Part shown: one piece after another, positions 14,539 to 33,795 of the stretch
How the letters are laid out: each line of letters starts with the position of its first letter
Position numbering within the stretch: position 1 is the stretch's first letter
IMG/VR virus record: IMGVR_UViG_2531839454_000020
DNA length: 34,734 nt
Source of the DNA: a virus
Lineage: Duplodnaviria; Heunggongvirae; Uroviricota; Caudoviricetes
Reading direction: 5' to 3' (one strand)
Notes under the pieces: generated by a model
What the model saw: only the letters and a program-made list of their open reading frames with translations
The model's database searches: none
What the model was told of the DNA's origin: nothing
Program-made: the position numbers and the translations under genes

Positions 14539-17500
14539 ATGCAATCAATCCAATTTAAACGAACTAATGTTTCTGGCAAAAAACCAACGCCGGAACAATT
14601 ACAGGTCGGTGAGGTAGCAATCAACCTTAAAGACCATGTTATTTTTACCAAAGACCGAGATCATGAAGTAGTTCAAATCTCTGTTTCTCCTGAAACTCAC
14701 GCGGCACTAGAATCTAAAGTTGATGCTAATAAAAAAGAACTGGATAGCACAATTGTAGTAAACGACCGCAATATTCACGCTAAAGTAGATGAAATTAAAC
14801 AAACTACTGATGCAACAATCGCAGCAAATCACGCAGAAATTAACAATAAAGTTGATGTAATTAAACGCGAAACCGACGCGACAATCGAGGCCAATAAAAA
14901 TAAAGCTGCTTCCGATCTTGCTGGTGTTAAAGCTGAATTGTCGGATACCATCAACGCTAATAAAAATGCGGCTGCTGTAGCAACTCAGGAACTGGACACC
15001 CGCATCAATAAAAAAGTTGATGATATTAAATCCCGTACCGATGCAACCATCGTAAGCAATCACAAAGCAATCAATGACAAAGTTGATTTGATTAAGGCAG
15101 AAACTGACCGCACTATCGCAGCAAATCACGCCTATGCGGAAAATCAGTTAACTGACACCTACAATAACCTTACTGGTGTGATTGCAGCCAATAAGCAAGA
15201 GGCAGCGGATAACGTCGCAGCATTAACCCGTGATGTTGAAGCCAAAAATACAGCAATTCATAGCAAAGTTGACAATAACAAGTCTTACACTGATTCTGAA
15301 TTGGCACGCTTAGAAAGCCGTATTGATGCAGCCGATGGATCAAGTGATGGTAAGTACATCAAAAAGCACGTAAACACTTGCACTGATGGCTATTTGCTGT
15401 CTAAGACCGCAAACCCTTTTGATGATCCGAGTGCTCTTAATCTTGATTACTTTGGTGCATTTCGCATGAATGACCTGGCGGGTCATATTGCAATGATCTT
15501 GCATGTTCCGCACCCATCCGGCGTTAATCATGCTCGTGGTTTTGAGTTCACTTATGGGTCTAATCCACATGCTACTGTAAGAACATACGGCTATGATGAA
15601 TTGGGACATTTGGCATATTCTCACCGCATGTATCATGAAGGTGATAAACCTACTCCGGCTGAAATTGGCGCATATTCGAAAGCAGAAATTGACCGACTGT
15701 TCCAGAAGACGCTTAATTTTGGTATCGAGGGTGGTTGGTTTAAACTAGGCACTTTGACAATGCCACAACAACACGGTCGCACGGCTAAGATCCGTTTGGT
15801 AGGTGGTAACGGTTATAACGTAGGACATAATGGAAAAGCCAATATTATCGAATTGGTGATTCGATGCGGCAACAATAGCCCGAAAGGTGTTGTATTCAAT
15901 GCGTATTATACTATTTGGCATTATGAACAACATTTTTGCGCTATTCCAACCGATGGCGACAATTACGATCTTTACGCTTACTACGGTGCACATACAGGAT
16001 TTGTTTTAGCAGAATATCAAGTTTCTTCCGGTGGTGTTTCTTTAAACCTGTTGGATACTCCTGAATATCTGGGTGGTGAAAAACCTGTTGCAGATGAAAT
16101 TTTTGATGCTCTTAACATTTCATCGTTCAATAACTTTAGCAACCGTGGGACGTTAAATTTTGCTGGCAATCATCAAGGCCAATATGATATTGAGCATTTA
16201 AACGAACAACCGACAAATGCTAAAAAGATGTTGCGTCGCTTCCGTAGTTGTGCACCAGCTACAATCTGGCATGAGACAGTTGATGATAACGCATATCGTC
16301 TTGCTACTGGATACGAAGATACAAATCAGGAATTATTGCTGACAGCAACATCCGGGTTACATGTCAAGAAATTAACATTGGATGGCGGTGTTACTGGAAA
16401 TTCTGGTATTGATATTCGTCGAGGACCAAACGAATCAAGTCATTTTAATTTCATGGATTATCGCACTGGACAAGATGTTCGTAATGGTTGGTTTGGTTTT
16501 GGTGATGGAACAACCAAAGATTTTATTTGGTGGAACGATAACGGTCAAAACTCTATAAACCTGATTGAAGATGGTGAATTGCATATTACTGGCGGTAAAG
16601 GCCAGAAAATTGTAATGAATAGCGAAGTTGCATTATCTGAAAATGCTCGTTTGGCTGTCAAAGGTGGTAACTATGGCTTAATTTTTAGAAATGATGGCGT
16701 TGGCTTCCATATTCTTACCACAGATCTCGGTGATTCATTTGGACCGTGGAATACTCGTAGACCATTCAGCTATAATTTTGCTGACGGTGGATTATATTTA
16801 GGTGGCACTGAAACTGCTCGTTGTTTGCATCTTGGAATTGATGGTAGTACCCGTCTTGAAGACAACCTTTTCTTTAAAGCTGGTTCTCGTCAATCTATGG
16901 ACTATATGGAACTCGTCCATTGGGGGGCAAGCAATACAGGTCGAAATAACGTTTTAAGTCTTCGTGACTCAAAAGGATTTTTCGCAGAATTTGAACGATT
17001 GGGTGATAATACCATTAAAAACACCTTCTTCGGGAAACTTAAAGTTAATCGTGGTTCTGACGCAATCGTCATGAATGCCGAAACGGGTGATTCGTCTATA
17101 TATTTGCTGGGTACTTGTGCTGATAATAACAACTGGTATATCGGTAAAGGTGGTGCTGATAATGGATTAGCGTTCTATAGCTATGCTACTAATGCTGCTA
17201 TCAATATTACAAACGCGGGTGATATCGCGCTAAGTCCAAAAGGTGTCGAAATGACTCATGTCAATAACGTTCGATTCTATGTTCATGGTGAACGTTGGAC
17301 TGCTAGCCAATCTGGAGGTTGGGGCGATCAATGGGGATTAGAAGCGCCGATATTTGTCGATCATGGTTATGTAGGACCAGATAGCTATTATCCAATTATT
17401 AAAGGAAGAAGTTTAATCACCAATCAAGGGTATACAACTGCCGTCGATTTTGGTATGCGTCGTGTTCCTCAAAATTGGGGGCAAGCAATTATTCGCGTTG

Positions 17501-17949
17501 GATCTGCGGAGGCATCGCCAGCGGCTGGTCATCCTCAAGCGGTGTTTGAATTTCATCATGATGGTACTTTCTATTCTCCTGGTAATGGTAACTTTAACGA
17601 TGTTTATATTCGTTCCGATGGTCGTCTGAAAATTAATGTTGAAGATTACGAAGAAAATGCGGTGGATAAGGTAAATAAACTCAAAGTTAAAACCTACGAT
17701 AAAGTTAAATCTCTTAATGACCGAGAAGTTATAGGTCATGAGATTGGTATTATCGCACAGGATTTACAAGAGGTATTACCGGAAGCTGTTAAAACCGCAA
17801 AAATTGGTGGTCTTGATAACCCAGAAGAAATTTTAACAATTTCAAACTCCGCAGTGAACGCGCTTTTAATTAAAGCGGTCCAAGAAATGAGCGAAGAAAA
17901 TAAACTTCTTCGTGAACGTCTTGCTGCAATTGAAGCTAAATTAGGGTAA
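14539..17949 (+). CDS. L-shaped-type tail fibre with C-terminal intramolecular chaperone (peptidase S74-like), 1136 aa
   Basis: N-terminal FKRTNVSGKKPTPEQLQVGEVAINLKD; four KVD-x-IK-xx-TD-x-TI-xx-NH repeats; C-terminal ~110 aa beginning S|DGRLKINVEDYE and ending in a coiled coil, as in auto-cleaving chaperone domains of T5-type fibres and endosialidases (recalled). Confidence 0.75.
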   Translation: MQSIQFKRTNVSGKKPTPEQLQVGEVAINLKDHVIFTKDRDHEVVQISVSPETHAALESKVDANKKELDSTIVVNDRNIHAKVDEIKQTTDATIAANHAEINNKVDVIKRETDATIEANKNKAASDLAGVKAELSDTINANKNAAAVATQELDTRINKKVDDIKSRTDATIVSNHKAINDKVDLIKAETDRTIAANHAYAENQLTDTYNNLTGVIAANKQEAADNVAALTRDVEAKNTAIHSKVDNNKSYTDSELARLESRIDAADGSSDGKYIKKHVNTCTDGYLLSKTANPFDDPSALNLDYFGAFRMNDLAGHIAMILHVPHPSGVNHARGFEFTYGSNPHATVRTYGYDELGHLAYSHRMYHEGDKPTPAEIGAYSKAEIDRLFQKTLNFGIEGGWFKLGTLTMPQQHGRTAKIRLVGGNGYNVGHNGKANIIELVIRCGNNSPKGVVFNAYYTIWHYEQHFCAIPTDGDNYDLYAYYGAHTGFVLAEYQVSSGGVSLNLLDTPEYLGGEKPVADEIFDALNISSFNNFSNRGTLNFAGNHQGQYDIEHLNEQPTNAKKMLRRFRSCAPATIWHETVDDNAYRLATGYEDTNQELLLTATSGLHVKKLTLDGGVTGNSGIDIRRGPNESSHFNFMDYRTGQDVRNGWFGFGDGTTKDFIWWNDNGQNSINLIEDGELHITGGKGQKIVMNSEVALSENARLAVKGGNYGLIFRNDGVGFHILTTDLGDSFGPWNTRRPFSYNFADGGLYLGGTETARCLHLGIDGSTRLEDNLFFKAGSRQSMDYMELVHWGASNTGRNNVLSLRDSKGFFAEFERLGDNTIKNTFFGKLKVNRGSDAIVMNAETGDSSIYLLGTCADNNNWYIGKGGADNGLAFYSYATNAAINITNAGDIALSPKGVEMTHVNNVRFYVHGERWTASQSGGWGDQWGLEAPIFVDHGYVGPDSYYPIIKGRSLITNQGYTTAVDFGMRRVPQNWGQAIIRVGSAEASPAAGHPQAVFEFHHDGTFYSPGNGNFNDVYIRSDGRLKINVEDYEENAVDKVNKLKVKTYDKVKSLNDREVIGHEIGIIAQDLQEVLPEAVKTAKIGGLDNPEEILTISNSAVNALLIKAVQEMSEENKLLRERLAAIEAKLG
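17617..17946 (+). other. predicted auto-cleaved intramolecular chaperone domain of the fibre
   Basis: Begins at the Asp of ...YIRS|DGRLK...; 110 aa to the stop. Confidence 0.55.
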
Positions 17950-17987
17950 TTGGAAAGCGGGGAGAAATCTCCGCTAAGGATTCTTAT

Positions 17988-18284
17988 ATGGGATATTGGG
18001 TAAGTAGTGAAATTAATACTAAAATCGATGCTTTAAAATGGCATGTATTTGATATTCCTAACGGCTATGGTACTGCTCGTGCTGGTGTCGCTGTAATGCG
18101 TCATAATGCTGGTGGTGGGTGGTCTGATGCACATATTAACGTAGATGGTTTGACCGTTGCTCGTCGTCGTGGTGGGACCAATTGGGGATCTACTATAAAT
18201 TCGTTTGTTCCTGCTGGCTGCACCGTCTCCTTTGGTTTAGGGGGTGAAGGTGGTGTTGAATATTTTAAATTCATGGAGTTTTAA
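17988..18284 (+). CDS. small Gly-rich protein, paralog 1 of 3 (98 aa), function unknown
   Basis: MGYWVSS...FDIPNGYG...CTVSFGLGGEGGVEYFKF; AAGGA SD. Confidence 0.6.
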   Translation: MGYWVSSEINTKIDALKWHVFDIPNGYGTARAGVAVMRHNAGGGWSDAHINVDGLTVARRRGGTNWGSTINSFVPAGCTVSFGLGGEGGVEYFKFMEF

Positions 18285-30515: not shown

Positions 30516-30806
30516 ATGAATACTACTTTAGCAAAGGATATCGAATTTACCGCAAAAAGCAAACGTGCGACCCCTCCGGTCGAATATGAAATCAGAATCA
30601 TTAAAGTTTGTCAAGCGCATGGATGGTTATACAGTGGTTTTGTGCTTCCTGTAAAGAAACCATTCCAGAACACCAAAGTTTGCATAGAAGTTAACGGAAA
30701 GGTTAAAACGCCATGTATTAGTCATGTTCTAACTGGTCAGTTTACTGGCAAAGATAGAGTATCACCGCCTAAGAAGAAGTTTAGATTTACCGAAGAAGAA
30801 CACTAA
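30516..30806 (+). CDS. hypothetical protein (96 aa)
   Basis: ORF directly after the conserved element. Confidence 0.5.
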   Translation: MNTTLAKDIEFTAKSKRATPPVEYEIRIIKVCQAHGWLYSGFVLPVKKPFQNTKVCIEVNGKVKTPCISHVLTGQFTGKDRVSPPKKKFRFTEEEH

Positions 30807-30845
30807 GAAAACGCTCGCAAGTTCTAAAAGCCGATAGGGTGGGAT

Positions 30846-31514
30846 GTGTTAGGTCTGGCTGAACCTTATCAGGGTGTTGACACTAAACTAATTCTTCGTT
30901 GTAAGTGCCACGGAAAGATTCACAAGAAAGGTGATTTACACAATAACCGCAGACAAGGCGGGTTAACATGCCCTTTGGTTAGGGGTGTACTTAAATCAAT
31001 TCAGAATGGTAGAAAACAGGTTATCAGAAACAAGTTTGCACAGCGCTCTATGCACTTTTATCTAATTCGTGTTGGCGAGAAGTTTTTCAAATATGGAATT
31101 ACCACTCGCAAAGATCCGATGCAACGGGTAAGAGAACACCAGAAGCACACCAGCGAGAAAATCACCTTTGAATGCTCACATTTGTTTAACATTGGATGGA
31201 AAGCTGGTGATTTAGAAATGGGGATTAAAAAGAATATTCAGGGCAAGAAAATCCCACGTAAGGTAATGAATAGCGGATTCACAGAAACGCTACCGATTAG
31301 CAAGCTGAAAGATGTTAAATCATTCATCAATGAATACATCCACACCAACCCATCTAAGCCAATGTATTTTGATGATACCAACGCAATCAATCTGAACAAC
31401 TACATTAGTGATGAAGACATAGAACGAGATTTATCGCAGTGGATGAATGCACCGTTAGCTGATTTAATACCGGAAGACTTAGAACTCGATTTAAGCCCTT
31501 TAGAGGCTCTTTAA
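30846..31514 (+). CDS. GIY-YIG-type homing endonuclease-like protein with N-terminal Cys/His-rich extension (222 aa, GTG start)
   Basis: FYLIRVGEKFFKYGITTRKDPMQRVREH ... TFECSHLFNI ... E..IKK resembles the GIY-YIG catalytic core (recalled); preceded by CKCHGKIHKKGDLHNNRRQGGLTCPL. Confidence 0.45.
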   Translation: MLGLAEPYQGVDTKLILRCKCHGKIHKKGDLHNNRRQGGLTCPLVRGVLKSIQNGRKQVIRNKFAQRSMHFYLIRVGEKFFKYGITTRKDPMQRVREHQKHTSEKITFECSHLFNIGWKAGDLEMGIKKNIQGKKIPRKVMNSGFTETLPISKLKDVKSFINEYIHTNPSKPMYFDDTNAINLNNYISDEDIERDLSQWMNAPLADLIPEDLELDLSPLEAL

Positions 31515-31530
31515 TACAATTAAATTAAAA

Positions 31531-31550
31531 AGGGGTACAGATGTACCCCT
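31531..31550. terminator. hairpin between convergent genes (bidirectional terminator candidate)
   Basis: aggggtac-agat-gtacccct, A/T-rich on both sides, between the + stop at 31514 and the minus stop at 31588. Confidence 0.5.
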
Positions 31551-31587
31551 TAAAGTGTTTAGCTCGTTATACGTCGATTTAGGCCGC

Positions 31588-33267
31588 TTAAATTCCAAAT
31601 TCCTGTAATGGACCTGGTATTTCCTCTTCTGGTTTCCAGTTCTTATCTGTCAGCATGTCTAAACATGGATGCAGAACAAGCCCGTTGCTCTCCAGAATCT
31701 GCCTATCATTGATAGTTTTCAAATCAATGAATATCCGGCCTTTCCTCGTTCCTCTTGAATTTTCTATTACAACTCTCTGGGTCTTTCCATCGATGTATTC
31801 CAGTACAAACAAGTTTTTGTTTCTGTCAATCCTGCTACACCCGATCCGCTTTAGAGCTTGCTTAATCTTAAACCGGACCTTTAGTCGTTCCTCGTTATAA
31901 ACATCTTCTAAATCAAATTCTGCGAGCTTCTCCCAGCCTTGAGAGTCCACAGAATACATTTCCTCTTCTGCCATCTTGATCTGATTGTAGAGTGTTTCAC
32001 GCTCGCTATTGAGGGTAGTAATCTGATCGGCTAGCTCCTTCGTTGCTCCTGTCATAGCAGAAAGGGCAATCAGGTTATCAATCTTGCGTGATATTTCATC
32101 AACCTGTACTTTCAAAGCCGGAACCGGATTAGCCTTGTCCTCAGCAATCCAGATTTTATCAGCCAGCAATTGCAATACAGCTTTCTCTAATTGATCACCT
32201 CGAAAACTCCAGTTTGGATGCTCGCAATCAAGTCTACGTGAACGGGTCGCATCACATGTATAACGATACTGGTCAGAACGTTTGTTTGTTCCCTTCACTT
32301 TAACCATAGCGCAGCCGCAATGATCACATTTCAATAGGCCAATACCACTAAGCAGGGGGATCGGTTTAACTTCTTCCTTCTCTCCAAAGTTCCATGCTCT
32401 AGCACCAATATTTTTCTTAAGGTGATAGAACGTAGCATCATCAATAACACGAGGGTAATAATCCTTTAACTCATAGTTAACGCCATCTACAGAGACTTCC
32501 TTGATACCAATCAAAGCGCGGGTATGGAACAACCTTTCAACCATTGCCCGTGACCATTTTGAATGCTTCTTGTTGCTTACTGCTGGTGGTGGTGCATATG
32601 TCTCGTTAAGGTGATCCAGTATTTCGGCGGTTGAACGTCCATTCTTCCGTAATTCCACAATCTCCTGAACAACAGGGAAGTACACCGGATGAGGCAGCAC
32701 ATAACCGGAAGTGGTATCAGTCCACCACATATTCTTTCCAACTTCCTCGATTGCCACTGCCGGATTCTGGGGATTTTCTTGATGAGCTTTAATCTTAATC
32801 AGTGCGCTTGAGTTAGTACGATTGCGCTTAGTCTGACTTTCCTCATTACCACGGATGAATAAAAGGATGGAGAACATCAGGTCCATCGGATTAGCGGTAA
32901 CAGTATCCAGCGAGTAGATCTTGTTATCCATGCCAGTAACAATGGTTATTCCCCTACGGATGATTGAAAGGAATAACTCCTGCGCACTGACAATATCGGC
33001 ACGGGATAAGCGGTCCAAGTTTTCAATGAATAGCCAGCTACCAACAGGAACGGATCTACCAATTGCATCAAGGAAACGAGATAACGCCCCTGTTTTAGAG
33101 TTAGCACCCTTAAACGCAGATACACCCAGATCCTGATAATCATTTACCAGTTCAAGGTCATACTTTGCCGCAACCTCTCTCGCCATCCTGATTTGTCGTT
33201 CATAACTCGAACCATCATTCTGACGCATAGACGAGAAGCGAATATACGAATACAGTTTAGTTTTCAT
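31588..33267 (-). CDS. large serine recombinase (integrase/resolvase family), ~559 aa
   Basis: N-terminal MKTKLYSYIRFSSMRQ...YERQ resolvase catalytic motif, Cys-rich CDHCGC...C zinc ribbon, C-terminal coiled coil; the track start at 33282 adds 5 residues. Confidence 0.8.
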   Translation of the reverse strand: MKTKLYSYIRFSSMRQNDGSSYERQIRMAREVAAKYDLELVNDYQDLGVSAFKGANSKTGALSRFLDAIGRSVPVGSWLFIENLDRLSRADIVSAQELFLSIIRRGITIVTGMDNKIYSLDTVTANPMDLMFSILLFIRGNEESQTKRNRTNSSALIKIKAHQENPQNPAVAIEEVGKNMWWTDTTSGYVLPHPVYFPVVQEIVELRKNGRSTAEILDHLNETYAPPPAVSNKKHSKWSRAMVERLFHTRALIGIKEVSVDGVNYELKDYYPRVIDDATFYHLKKNIGARAWNFGEKEEVKPIPLLSGIGLLKCDHCGCAMVKVKGTNKRSDQYRYTCDATRSRRLDCEHPNWSFRGDQLEKAVLQLLADKIWIAEDKANPVPALKVQVDEISRKIDNLIALSAMTGATKELADQITTLNSERETLYNQIKMAEEEMYSVDSQGWEKLAEFDLEDVYNEERLKVRFKIKQALKRIGCSRIDRNKNLFVLEYIDGKTQRVVIENSRGTRKGRIFIDLKTINDRQILESNGLVLHPCLDMLTDKNWKPEEEIPGPLQEFGI

Positions 33268-33330
33268 ACCATTTCCAAACAAAAACGCCCCTACCGCGTA
33301 TTATAACGATAGGGGCTAGGTGATTAAAGA

Positions 33331-33750
33331 TTAAAGAATTTCACGGCAGCTAATCAGGGGATAAGATGTATCACCTTTTTTAACATCAAATATAGGAGCG
33401 CCATCTACAGAATGCAGATATTTGATGTAAGACTTACCATCTTCGGAACCATAATATTCTTCTTTCTCGTTCTTATCTTCTTTCAGTTTCGGGCTTTTGA
33501 TTGTTTTATCAAATACCGGATCGTTGAAAGCAAATTGACTATTATCATCATTCACTCGAACCTTTACACCGATAAAACCACGGTATTTGCCAGACGGCGC
33601 ATGATAATAACGGTCGCCATCACTCAGGTAGCGTGTATCATCTCCTTTATATTCGAAGTAGGAATTGCACACATAATAGGTATAGGTATTAGCATTCGCA
33701 GCACCAACCAAACCCAGAGCAAGAACAACACCCGCGATAATCTTTTTCAT
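33331..33750 (-). CDS. secreted/periplasmic hypothetical protein (139 aa) with signal peptide
   Basis: MKKIIAGVVLALGLVGAANA signal-like N-terminus (no lipobox Cys); two Cys near the ends of the mature part. Confidence 0.55.
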   Translation of the reverse strand: MKKIIAGVVLALGLVGAANANTYTYYVCNSYFEYKGDDTRYLSDGDRYYHAPSGKYRGFIGVKVRVNDDNSQFAFNDPVFDKTIKSPKLKEDKNEKEEYYGSEDGKSYIKYLHSVDGAPIFDVKKGDTSYPLISCREIL

Positions 33751-33795
33751 AGTAGAATTTCCTCTTGTTATTTGAATTACGATATATTTATATCG

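Follow-up and report, generated by a model that had tools for sequence, protein, structure and literature searches.

The 34,734-nt stretch of DNA analysed here (IMG/VR virus record IMGVR_UViG_2531839454_000020, Caudoviricetes; the whole stretch is hereafter called the window) derives from a temperate phage of siphovirus type that is an Escherichia coli prophage of ~35 kb, and the gene at positions 31588–33267 on its minus strand encodes an intact large serine recombinase (LSR) with the canonical architecture of this enzyme family. The recombinase is very probably the integrase of the phage, using the LSR mechanism on defined attachment (att) sites, with a target that is set by its DNA-binding domains. 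Prophages with nearly identical enzymes are inserted at an AA dinucleotide in ycdX, and those of a sister lineage at an AA dinucleotide in hicB. The original prediction, made from the window alone, had recognized an LSR with full resolvase domain, zinc ribbon and coiled coil and had read it as implying integration or programmed rearrangement. The enzyme class held up in Pfam scores above the cut-offs, in the helices of an AlphaFold model and in Foldseek matches. The integration role was borne out by comparison with host genomes, in which the recombinase region was located at 62 chromosomal positions, spread over 60 of the 5426 complete E. coli genomes searched, and has integrated counterparts in Salmonella, contrary to the lack of integrated copies that would have spoken against the original prediction.

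The open reading frame (ORF) extends from an ATG at 33267 to a stop codon at 31588 and encodes 559 aa. An upstream in-frame TTG at 33282 falls within a T-tract, and the ATG start is also preferred in RefSeq relatives, which share the 1680-bp frame. Three Pfam families were detected, namely PF00239 Resolvase (aa 6–153, 9e-15, 55.4 bits against a cut-off of 23.3), PF07508 Recombinase (aa 198–287, 4e-9, 37.0 bits against 21.1), and PF13408 Zn_ribbon_recom (aa 310–368, 1e-10, 42.2 bits against 25.3). In an alignment of 47 homologues, with identities down to 28%, the catalytic residues R10, S12, Q16, D85, R86, and R89 and the zinc cysteines C314, C317, C338, and C348 show no or almost no variation. 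The AlphaFold model (mean pLDDT 81.8) divides the protein into an N-terminal catalytic domain with nucleophile Ser12 and a long helix E (aa 1–164, positions 32776–33267; strand 4–11 through helix 127–164), a helical recombinase domain that binds DNA (aa 176–292, 32392–32742; modelled helices at 196–291), a zinc ribbon (aa 309–373, 32149–32343; modelled at 312–373), a coiled-coil motif (aa 382–437, 31957–32124), and an additional, mostly beta C-terminal domain without Pfam match (aa 460–540, 31648–31890), all on the minus strand. The coiled coil is predicted as two long antiparallel helices, 382–406 and 410–437, with block pLDDT values of 82–89. Foldseek searches of the PDB returned full-length serine integrase-DNA complexes as top matches (9dxf, 9dxd, 9y66, 9tep, 9rah, and 4kis; probability 1.00), among them complexes of phiC31 (9tep, 9rah) and a Listeria integrase (4kis), at a sequence identity to solved structures of just 12–16%; by sequence only, the sole structure matched was that of a catalytic domain (3guv, E = 0.002). 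The recombinase differs from the enzyme of the lysogen PEC41 in three residues (99.5% identity), and dN/dS among ycdX-type enzymes is 0.05–0.13 depending on the segment (window versus KSC64), which shows that the gene is under purifying selection. The recombinase agrees with the LSR family in every sequence-level and site-level feature open to testing; by analogy with the family, it should be catalytically active and exchange strands by the same mechanism.

The att sites were derived by comparing the junctions of PEC41, in which a 36.5-kb element lies between two annotated ycdX fragments, with the intact ycdX gene of E. coli K-12. In its short form attB reads CATCCCGGA[AA]TCCCAAATATG, and written to match the junctions it reads ...AAGCCATCCCGGA[AA]TCCCAAATATGAAAT...; attL is ...AAGCCATCCCGGA[AA]CCCGAACGTAGTCAACCCCTAATAA... 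and attR is ...TTATTGTGGGTACATGATATTAGGG[AA]TCCCAAATATGAAAT... As attL agrees with attB up to ...GGAAA (third A) and attR agrees with it from AATCCC... (second A), the two overlap on attB in AA alone, and the exchange is thus confined to this dinucleotide, the 2-bp staggered cut expected of the LSR family. The crossover AA corresponds to nucleotides 400–401 of ycdX, the first two bases of codon Asn134, so that YcdX is cut short after Gly133 and continues with seven phage-encoded residues (NPNVVNP). The insertion point, shortly before which lies His131, a zinc ligand of the PHP-family phosphatase YcdX, falls in conserved coding sequence. The attR junction in ycdX was found in ~27 genomes (12 full-length matches and 15 spanning ones) and the attL junction likewise in ~27. 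The reconstructed attP, TTATTGTGGGTACATGATATTAGGG[AA]CCCGAACGTAGTCAACCCCTAATAA, comprises ~50 bp with the central part ...GATATTAGGG AA CCCGAACGTAG... and is an imperfect palindrome, in which 16 of 25 positions per arm are symmetrical compared with a mean of 7.6 in shuffled sequences (P ~2.5e-4). Split reads of an excised form would span the string ...TATTAGGGAACCCGAACG...

The original prediction had stated that no attachment site is evident. This is true within the window, where neither att arm was found with up to three mismatches, but it results from where the window was cut, as the crossover AA is located 43–44 nt past position 34734. Related proviruses in IMG/VR break off, to the base, where the window does, at the start codon (ATG) of the terminal small gene, and a trim at an identical ATG identifies the right end as a gene-boundary cut and not a biological end. 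At the left end, the 5' part of a transposase gene of the IS256 family (Mutator type; 1–204, minus strand; Pfam Transposase_mut, 22.3 bits against a cut-off of 21) runs off the window. The window matches the left arm of PEC41 only from 277 onward; the insertion sequence (IS) replaces the missing ~1.3 kb, which includes attL and the right arm of attP, and probably means that the contig broke here or that an IS had inserted into the source genome. Together, the cut on the right, which falls 43 nt short of the junction, and the IS on the left explain why no att site is visible. The two intervals in which att sites had been suspected, 31515–31587 and 33268–33330, hold terminator-like hairpins only. 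With an enzyme that is 99.5% identical and a phage arm in common, the phage of the window is predicted to reside in ycdX as well.

Integration would proceed as follows. Recombinase dimers would bind attP, the imperfect palindrome of ~50 bp, on the circularized phage genome as well as the site in ycdX; after synapsis, both sites would be cut with a 2-nt stagger at the central AA, rotated and religated, which would split ycdX and leave the recombinase gene within the prophage, ~1.5 kb from its right-hand junction. The target would be set by the recombinase and zinc-ribbon domains, and a sister allele of this part would send otherwise similar phages into hicB. Excision would presumably need a directionality factor; according to PMC12286644, such factors lack conserved sequence and synteny.

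Several observations weigh against this interpretation. The window's own junctions lie outside it, which makes the ycdX site indirect, and scans of IMG/VR and metagenome contigs with exact and degenerate patterns yielded no intact attP of an excised or circular form, a weak negative given that matching was exact. The left arm (277–6600) gave no convincing family match for repressor, replication, or excision/directionality genes; its sole family match is a Rha/anti-repressor-like protein (4738–5580). No isolated phage resembles this element, the nearest capsid among deposited phages being 43% identical, and the present mobility of the phage is therefore putative and unproven. The integrase gene is unusually distant from attP (~1.5 kb, with three to five small genes between), and a terminator-like hairpin ahead of the recombinase gene leaves its expression unexplained.

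The element occurs sporadically in E. coli from pigs, humans, chickens, cat, dog, and frog, which points to repeated acquisition across varied hosts. The recombinase gene is always 0.9–1.7 kb from the provirus end in 28 IMG/VR relatives, and the recombinase region was not found on plasmids. Homologues from Salmonella enterica, in clusters with as many as 437 member sequences, show 71–77% identity; the Salmonella copies adjoin csgDEFG-ycdZ-ycdY and a truncated ycdX, with the junction TATTAGGG[AA]TCCAAAGTAT at the homologous ycdX position. In these ycdX-integrated Salmonella relatives, the cargo adjoining the recombinase gene includes genes for a UvsW-like helicase and a UvsY-like protein (recombination functions of T4 type). 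The enzyme belongs to a cluster annotated by the generic name 'recombinase family protein', with identities of 87–98% in E. coli and Shigella (two clusters at the 90% identity level, with 975 and 381 members), 69–77% in Salmonella and E. fergusonii, and 61% in Edwardsiella; its members from Escherichia, Shigella, Salmonella, and E. fergusonii have the same length, the same domains and, where checked, the same position at the prophage end. Some lysogens are visibly degraded: PEC41 has an IS5 in its tail region and an extra rve-domain gene, an IS1-associated deletion took the recombinase in strain L73 and spared only ~100 bp of the phage at its junction with hicB, and the ycdX junctions of PigCaeca_2 are just ~23 kb apart.

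The rest of the E. coli copies reside in hicB, the antitoxin gene of hicAB (~35 junctions), and encode enzymes with 87–92% identity; ycdX-type and hicB-type enzymes are 92% identical to each other. The hicB attB is GCGAATTGGC[AA]ACCTAAACAGGAG (core form GCGAATTGGC AA ACCTAAACAGG), in which AA represents the first two bases of codon Lys102. Here, too, exchange is confined to AA, as is seen when attL of 266917_2 is combined with attR variants whose phage arm ends in ...TAGGG. Insertion leaves hicA intact and truncates HicB within its C-terminal portion. At both target sites, one and the same reading frame specifies the peptide motif G-(N/K)-P-K-x-E-I. We compared alleles and targets in 13 enzymes with a readable site (five in ycdX, eight in hicB) and treated the enzyme of the window as an unknown. 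The allele at aa 176–370 predicts ycdX or hicB in 13 of 13 enzyme-site pairs, with 30–41 differences between the groups and 0–7 within them. The enzyme of the window differs from the main ycdX-type alleles at only 1–5 positions in this segment, and this closeness, together with its near identity to the PEC41 enzyme, predicts ycdX as its site. Twenty-six positions separate the two types perfectly, of which 22 lie in aa 176–351 (13 in the recombinase domain and nine in the zinc ribbon). Nine of the discriminating positions (196, 203, 222, 232, 237, 286, 292, 347, and 351) are shared by the ycdX-targeting enzymes of Salmonella. The N-terminal domain (aa 1–150) behaves differently, existing as two alleles ~31 residues apart that each occur with both targets. 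In the aa 176–370 segment dS is 0.36, compared with 0.10–0.16 in its flanks, and dN/dS is 0.26. The raised synonymous divergence suggests that the segment is an exchanged older allele and speaks against recent adaptive point mutations as the source of the difference in specificity.

We slightly favour the view that swapping aa 176–370 retargets the enzyme between ycdX and hicB, with attP nearly unchanged and the catalytic domain freely interchangeable, which would make the segment a minimal natural specificity switch. That the discriminating residues cause the choice of target is suggested by the known role of recombinase and zinc-ribbon domains in site recognition. If so, recognition of attB could be altered largely apart from that of attP in the LSR family, and a small set of residues would be at hand for reprogramming serine integrases. 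The foremost alternative is a single enzyme of relaxed specificity that uses both genes, with neutral residue differences and a correlation that reflects shared ancestry. The sites themselves lend it some credit: the right half-sites of the two attB are identical at 10 of 15 positions, all attP and attB half-sites start with nCC, the attP of both lineages is nearly identical, and Durrant et al. (PMC10083194) describe LSR clusters at the 90% identity level that have more than one target gene. We nevertheless consider relaxed specificity unlikely, as the association of allele and target is complete although the flanks (N-terminal alleles, cargo genes) have been reshuffled over both targets, and most of the discriminating residues lie in the DNA-binding domains. 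Moreover, the divergent allele of FDAARGOS_1267, which with 25–27 differences from the other ycdX enzymes is about as distant from them as the hicB type, is still found in ycdX, and the strains UTME-9 and BS74R-D, which carry one prophage in ycdX and one in hicB each, have the expected kind of junction at each site.

A regulatory role in addition to integration, in which reversible excision would restore ycdX or hicB in an 'active lysogeny' switch, appears improbable. Such switches have precedents in the comK phage of Listeria and in skin/SpoIVCA and SPbeta/SprA of Bacillus, serine integrases are established to excise precisely, and the truncation of YcdX after residue 133 occurs at a point in conserved coding sequence that is kept in Escherichia and Salmonella. 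Against this stand the pattern scans mentioned above, which recovered no excised forms from IMG/VR and metagenome contigs, and the fact that an intragenic attB is usual for serine integrases and needs no regulatory meaning; no connection with a developmental or stress programme was apparent.

We regard it as very improbable that the recombinase is a passenger or relic, that is, a recently acquired or decaying module in a prophage that was inserted by another enzyme or has become fixed. Decay is certainly present, both in the window, with an IS at its left end and a disrupted endonuclease-like gene, and in the lysogens described above (IS5 in PEC41, the IS1 deletion of the recombinase in L73, the 23-kb element in PigCaeca_2). 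The recombinase ORF, by contrast, is intact with all catalytic and zinc residues and under purifying selection, no tyrosine integrase or second recombinase was found among the window ORFs scanned, the junctions have exactly the anatomy left by a serine integrase, and the sporadic spread of the element over varied hosts points to repeated acquisition. All relatives examined, including those from Salmonella with enzymes down to 71% identity, have the recombinase at this same terminal position, and it is thus not a recent acquisition. The original prediction of a mosaic or recently acquired module is therefore correct as to mosaicism, which is evident in the tail fibre, the cargo slots on both sides of the recombinase and the domain alleles of the recombinase itself, but not as to a recent addition.

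Serine DNA invertases such as Gin, Hin, and Pin have ~190 aa and act on inverted sites that bracket a segment. Programmed rearrangement within the phage, for instance a tail-fibre inversion like those of Gin, Cin, or Pin, is scarcely credible in spite of the mosaic tail-fibre region and the existence of invertases among serine recombinases, since invertases are small enzymes without recombinase and zinc-ribbon domains whereas this protein has 559 aa, the window contains neither paired att-like sites, nor a copy of either att arm, nor long inverted repeats around a segment (a window-wide search for an invertible segment gave only short, chance- or terminator-like inverted repeats), and the chromosomal junctions explain the recombinase fully.

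Among characterized enzymes, phiC31 Int, Bxb1 gp35, Listeria A118/LI Int, TP901-1 Int, and SPbeta SprA show the same order of parts, from the catalytic domain through helix E and the recombinase domain to a zinc ribbon with inserted coiled coil. They also share with our recombinase the serine nucleophile, the crossover at a non-palindromic dinucleotide of 2 bp, an imperfectly palindromic attP of ~50 bp, and a short, intragenic attB that has no long homology to attP. It differs from them in the additional beta-rich C-terminal domain (aa 460–540), in its Enterobacteriaceae host, in its low identity to the solved structures, and in its gene position, with cargo in the ~1.5 kb between gene and attP, while their genes are adjacent to attP. 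The nearest matches among deposited phages are recombinases of the YbcK type (YbcK of DLP12; phages Perceval and 4A7) and those of the Burkholderia phages Bcep22, Bcep176, and JC1, with 28–32% identity over 80–94% of the length (E ~1e-43). These are LSRs of Proteobacteria phages too, but they are distant and belong to other phage types. YbcK-type genes lie mid-genome in lambdoid phages that integrate by a tyrosine integrase, whereas the recombinase described here sits at the prophage end. In the LSR catalogue of Durrant et al. (PMC10083194), the ycdX and hicB enzymes would be grouped together at the 90% level; with two target gene clusters, this group lies in the 'relatively site-specific' band (1–3 target gene clusters). 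Beyond that catalogue, the switch is mapped here to an exchange of aa 176–370 and 26 residues, nine of them kept in Salmonella; the att strings and the N-terminus of the protein were not found in the part of its supplementary files that was searched. In the literature searched, we came across no description of a serine recombinase that inserts a prophage into ycdX or hicB.

Upstream of the recombinase gene, a GC-rich, terminator-like hairpin with a T-tract (33287–33316, minus strand) has an 11-bp stem and a perfect TATAAT in its loop. It ends ~10 nt before the ribosome-binding site and ATG of the recombinase, followed by GTTTTTGTTT and then GGAAATGGT-ATG. Conservation among relatives begins exactly at 33316, and the hairpin with its TATAAT is kept in ycdX-type and hicB-type E. 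coli relatives and in Salmonella; FDAARGOS_1267 has another hairpin at the same spot. The hairpin may be a terminator, a promoter, or both, and could act as an insulator or as a regulatory element. Further terminator-like hairpins are situated at 31530–31551, between the convergent recombinase and endonuclease-like genes, and at 34029–34049 (minus strand), after a gene for a 128-aa protein; all of these are pattern matches from a terminator scan. The recombinase had been described as the last gene of a minus-strand accessory operon, a description that fits poorly with the minus-strand hairpins 34049–34029 and 33316–33287 that separate the co-oriented genes. It is probably not simply co-transcribed as the final operon gene, and we would guess at expression from a promoter overlapping the hairpin or by regulated read-through. 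In PEC41 and KSC64, a co-oriented gene at the left end of the prophage would come to lie upstream of the right-end genes across attP in the circular phage, and we infer that integration would part the right-end genes from any promoter at that gene.

The genes that follow from the recombinase gene to the window's right end are all small and on the minus strand. They encode a 139-aa protein with a signal-peptide-like N-terminus and no family match (33331–33750), the conserved 128-aa phage protein (34063–34449, phrog_14908), and a conserved 90-aa phage protein (34462–34734, phrog_6147) whose ATG is at the last base of the window. The 139-aa gene occupies a variable cargo slot, filled in other lysogens by unrelated genes of 228, 246, or 1047 bp. 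Two short hydrophobic ORFs of 26 aa (~34005–33925) and 41 aa (33921–33796, with a predicted membrane helix) lie in the gap 33751–34062, immediately upstream of the gene for the secreted-type 139-aa protein, and may form a small membrane-peptide cargo cassette. PADLOC matches for the cargo genes near the recombinase were marginal only (E above 0.004).

On the other side of the recombinase, the plus-strand gene at 30516–31514 encodes an endonuclease-like protein resembling the GIY-YIG superfamily (PHROG 681 'endonuclease', 5e-17). It is a pseudogene, with two in-frame stops, L97* (TTA to TAA) and Y104* (TAC to TAA), relative to the 332-aa allele of PEC41. The window/PEC41 allele remains under the Pfam cut-offs for MUG113 (E = 0.13) and CapR (E = 0.014), while an alternative 391-aa allele at the same spot in KSC64 exceeds them (MUG113, 26.8 bits against 22.3; CapR, 37.9 bits against 24.2). 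Other relatives have nothing at this position or several kb of other genes, among them the UvsW- and UvsY-like ones of Salmonella. No HNH or other nuclease family was detected in the remaining ORFs scanned. The endonuclease flavour of the window is a single decayed accessory gene in a variable cargo slot; the several homing-endonuclease-like genes of the original prediction shrink to this one candidate, and with them the suggested affinity to virulent phages, which rests on this gene alone.

The remainder of the window encodes a terminase large subunit, a portal protein, a fused protease-capsid protein, a tail tube protein, chaperones, a tape measure protein, distal tail and tail-tip proteins, a long tail fibre, and an M15 endolysin. 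The left arm further contains a gene for an acidic, 331-aa coiled-coil protein (1194–2189) and several small ORFs, all without family match. Among 50,697 deposited phage genomes, and likewise among plasmids, no close relatives were found, save for two short matches, one of 42 bp to vB-Eco-KMB41 and one to a segment of the tail fibre. The latter (16135–18255, 2.1 kb, covering part of the tail fibre gene at 14539–17949 and the next ORF) shares 97.3% identity with KFS-EC, a T4-like virulent phage. It corresponds to the distal long-tail-fibre (gp37-like) region within an otherwise unrelated temperate phage and, by its sequence, looks like a host-range module that virulent and temperate coliphages have recently exchanged.

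These findings remove an apparent oddity, as the recombinase is explained as the ordinary integrase of an uncultured temperate phage lineage and its missing att site as an artefact of where the sequence was cut. They define attP, attB, and the crossover dinucleotide for an LSR family that is common in E. coli, Shigella, and Salmonella, and identify ycdX and hicB as prophage insertion sites, neither of which is so described in the literature searched. As multi-target LSR relatives have been reported before (PMC10083194), the two-target pattern is a well-resolved example and not a new principle. The paired target alleles, combined with an exchanged catalytic domain, constitute a natural experiment on site choice that is relevant to genome-engineering tools.

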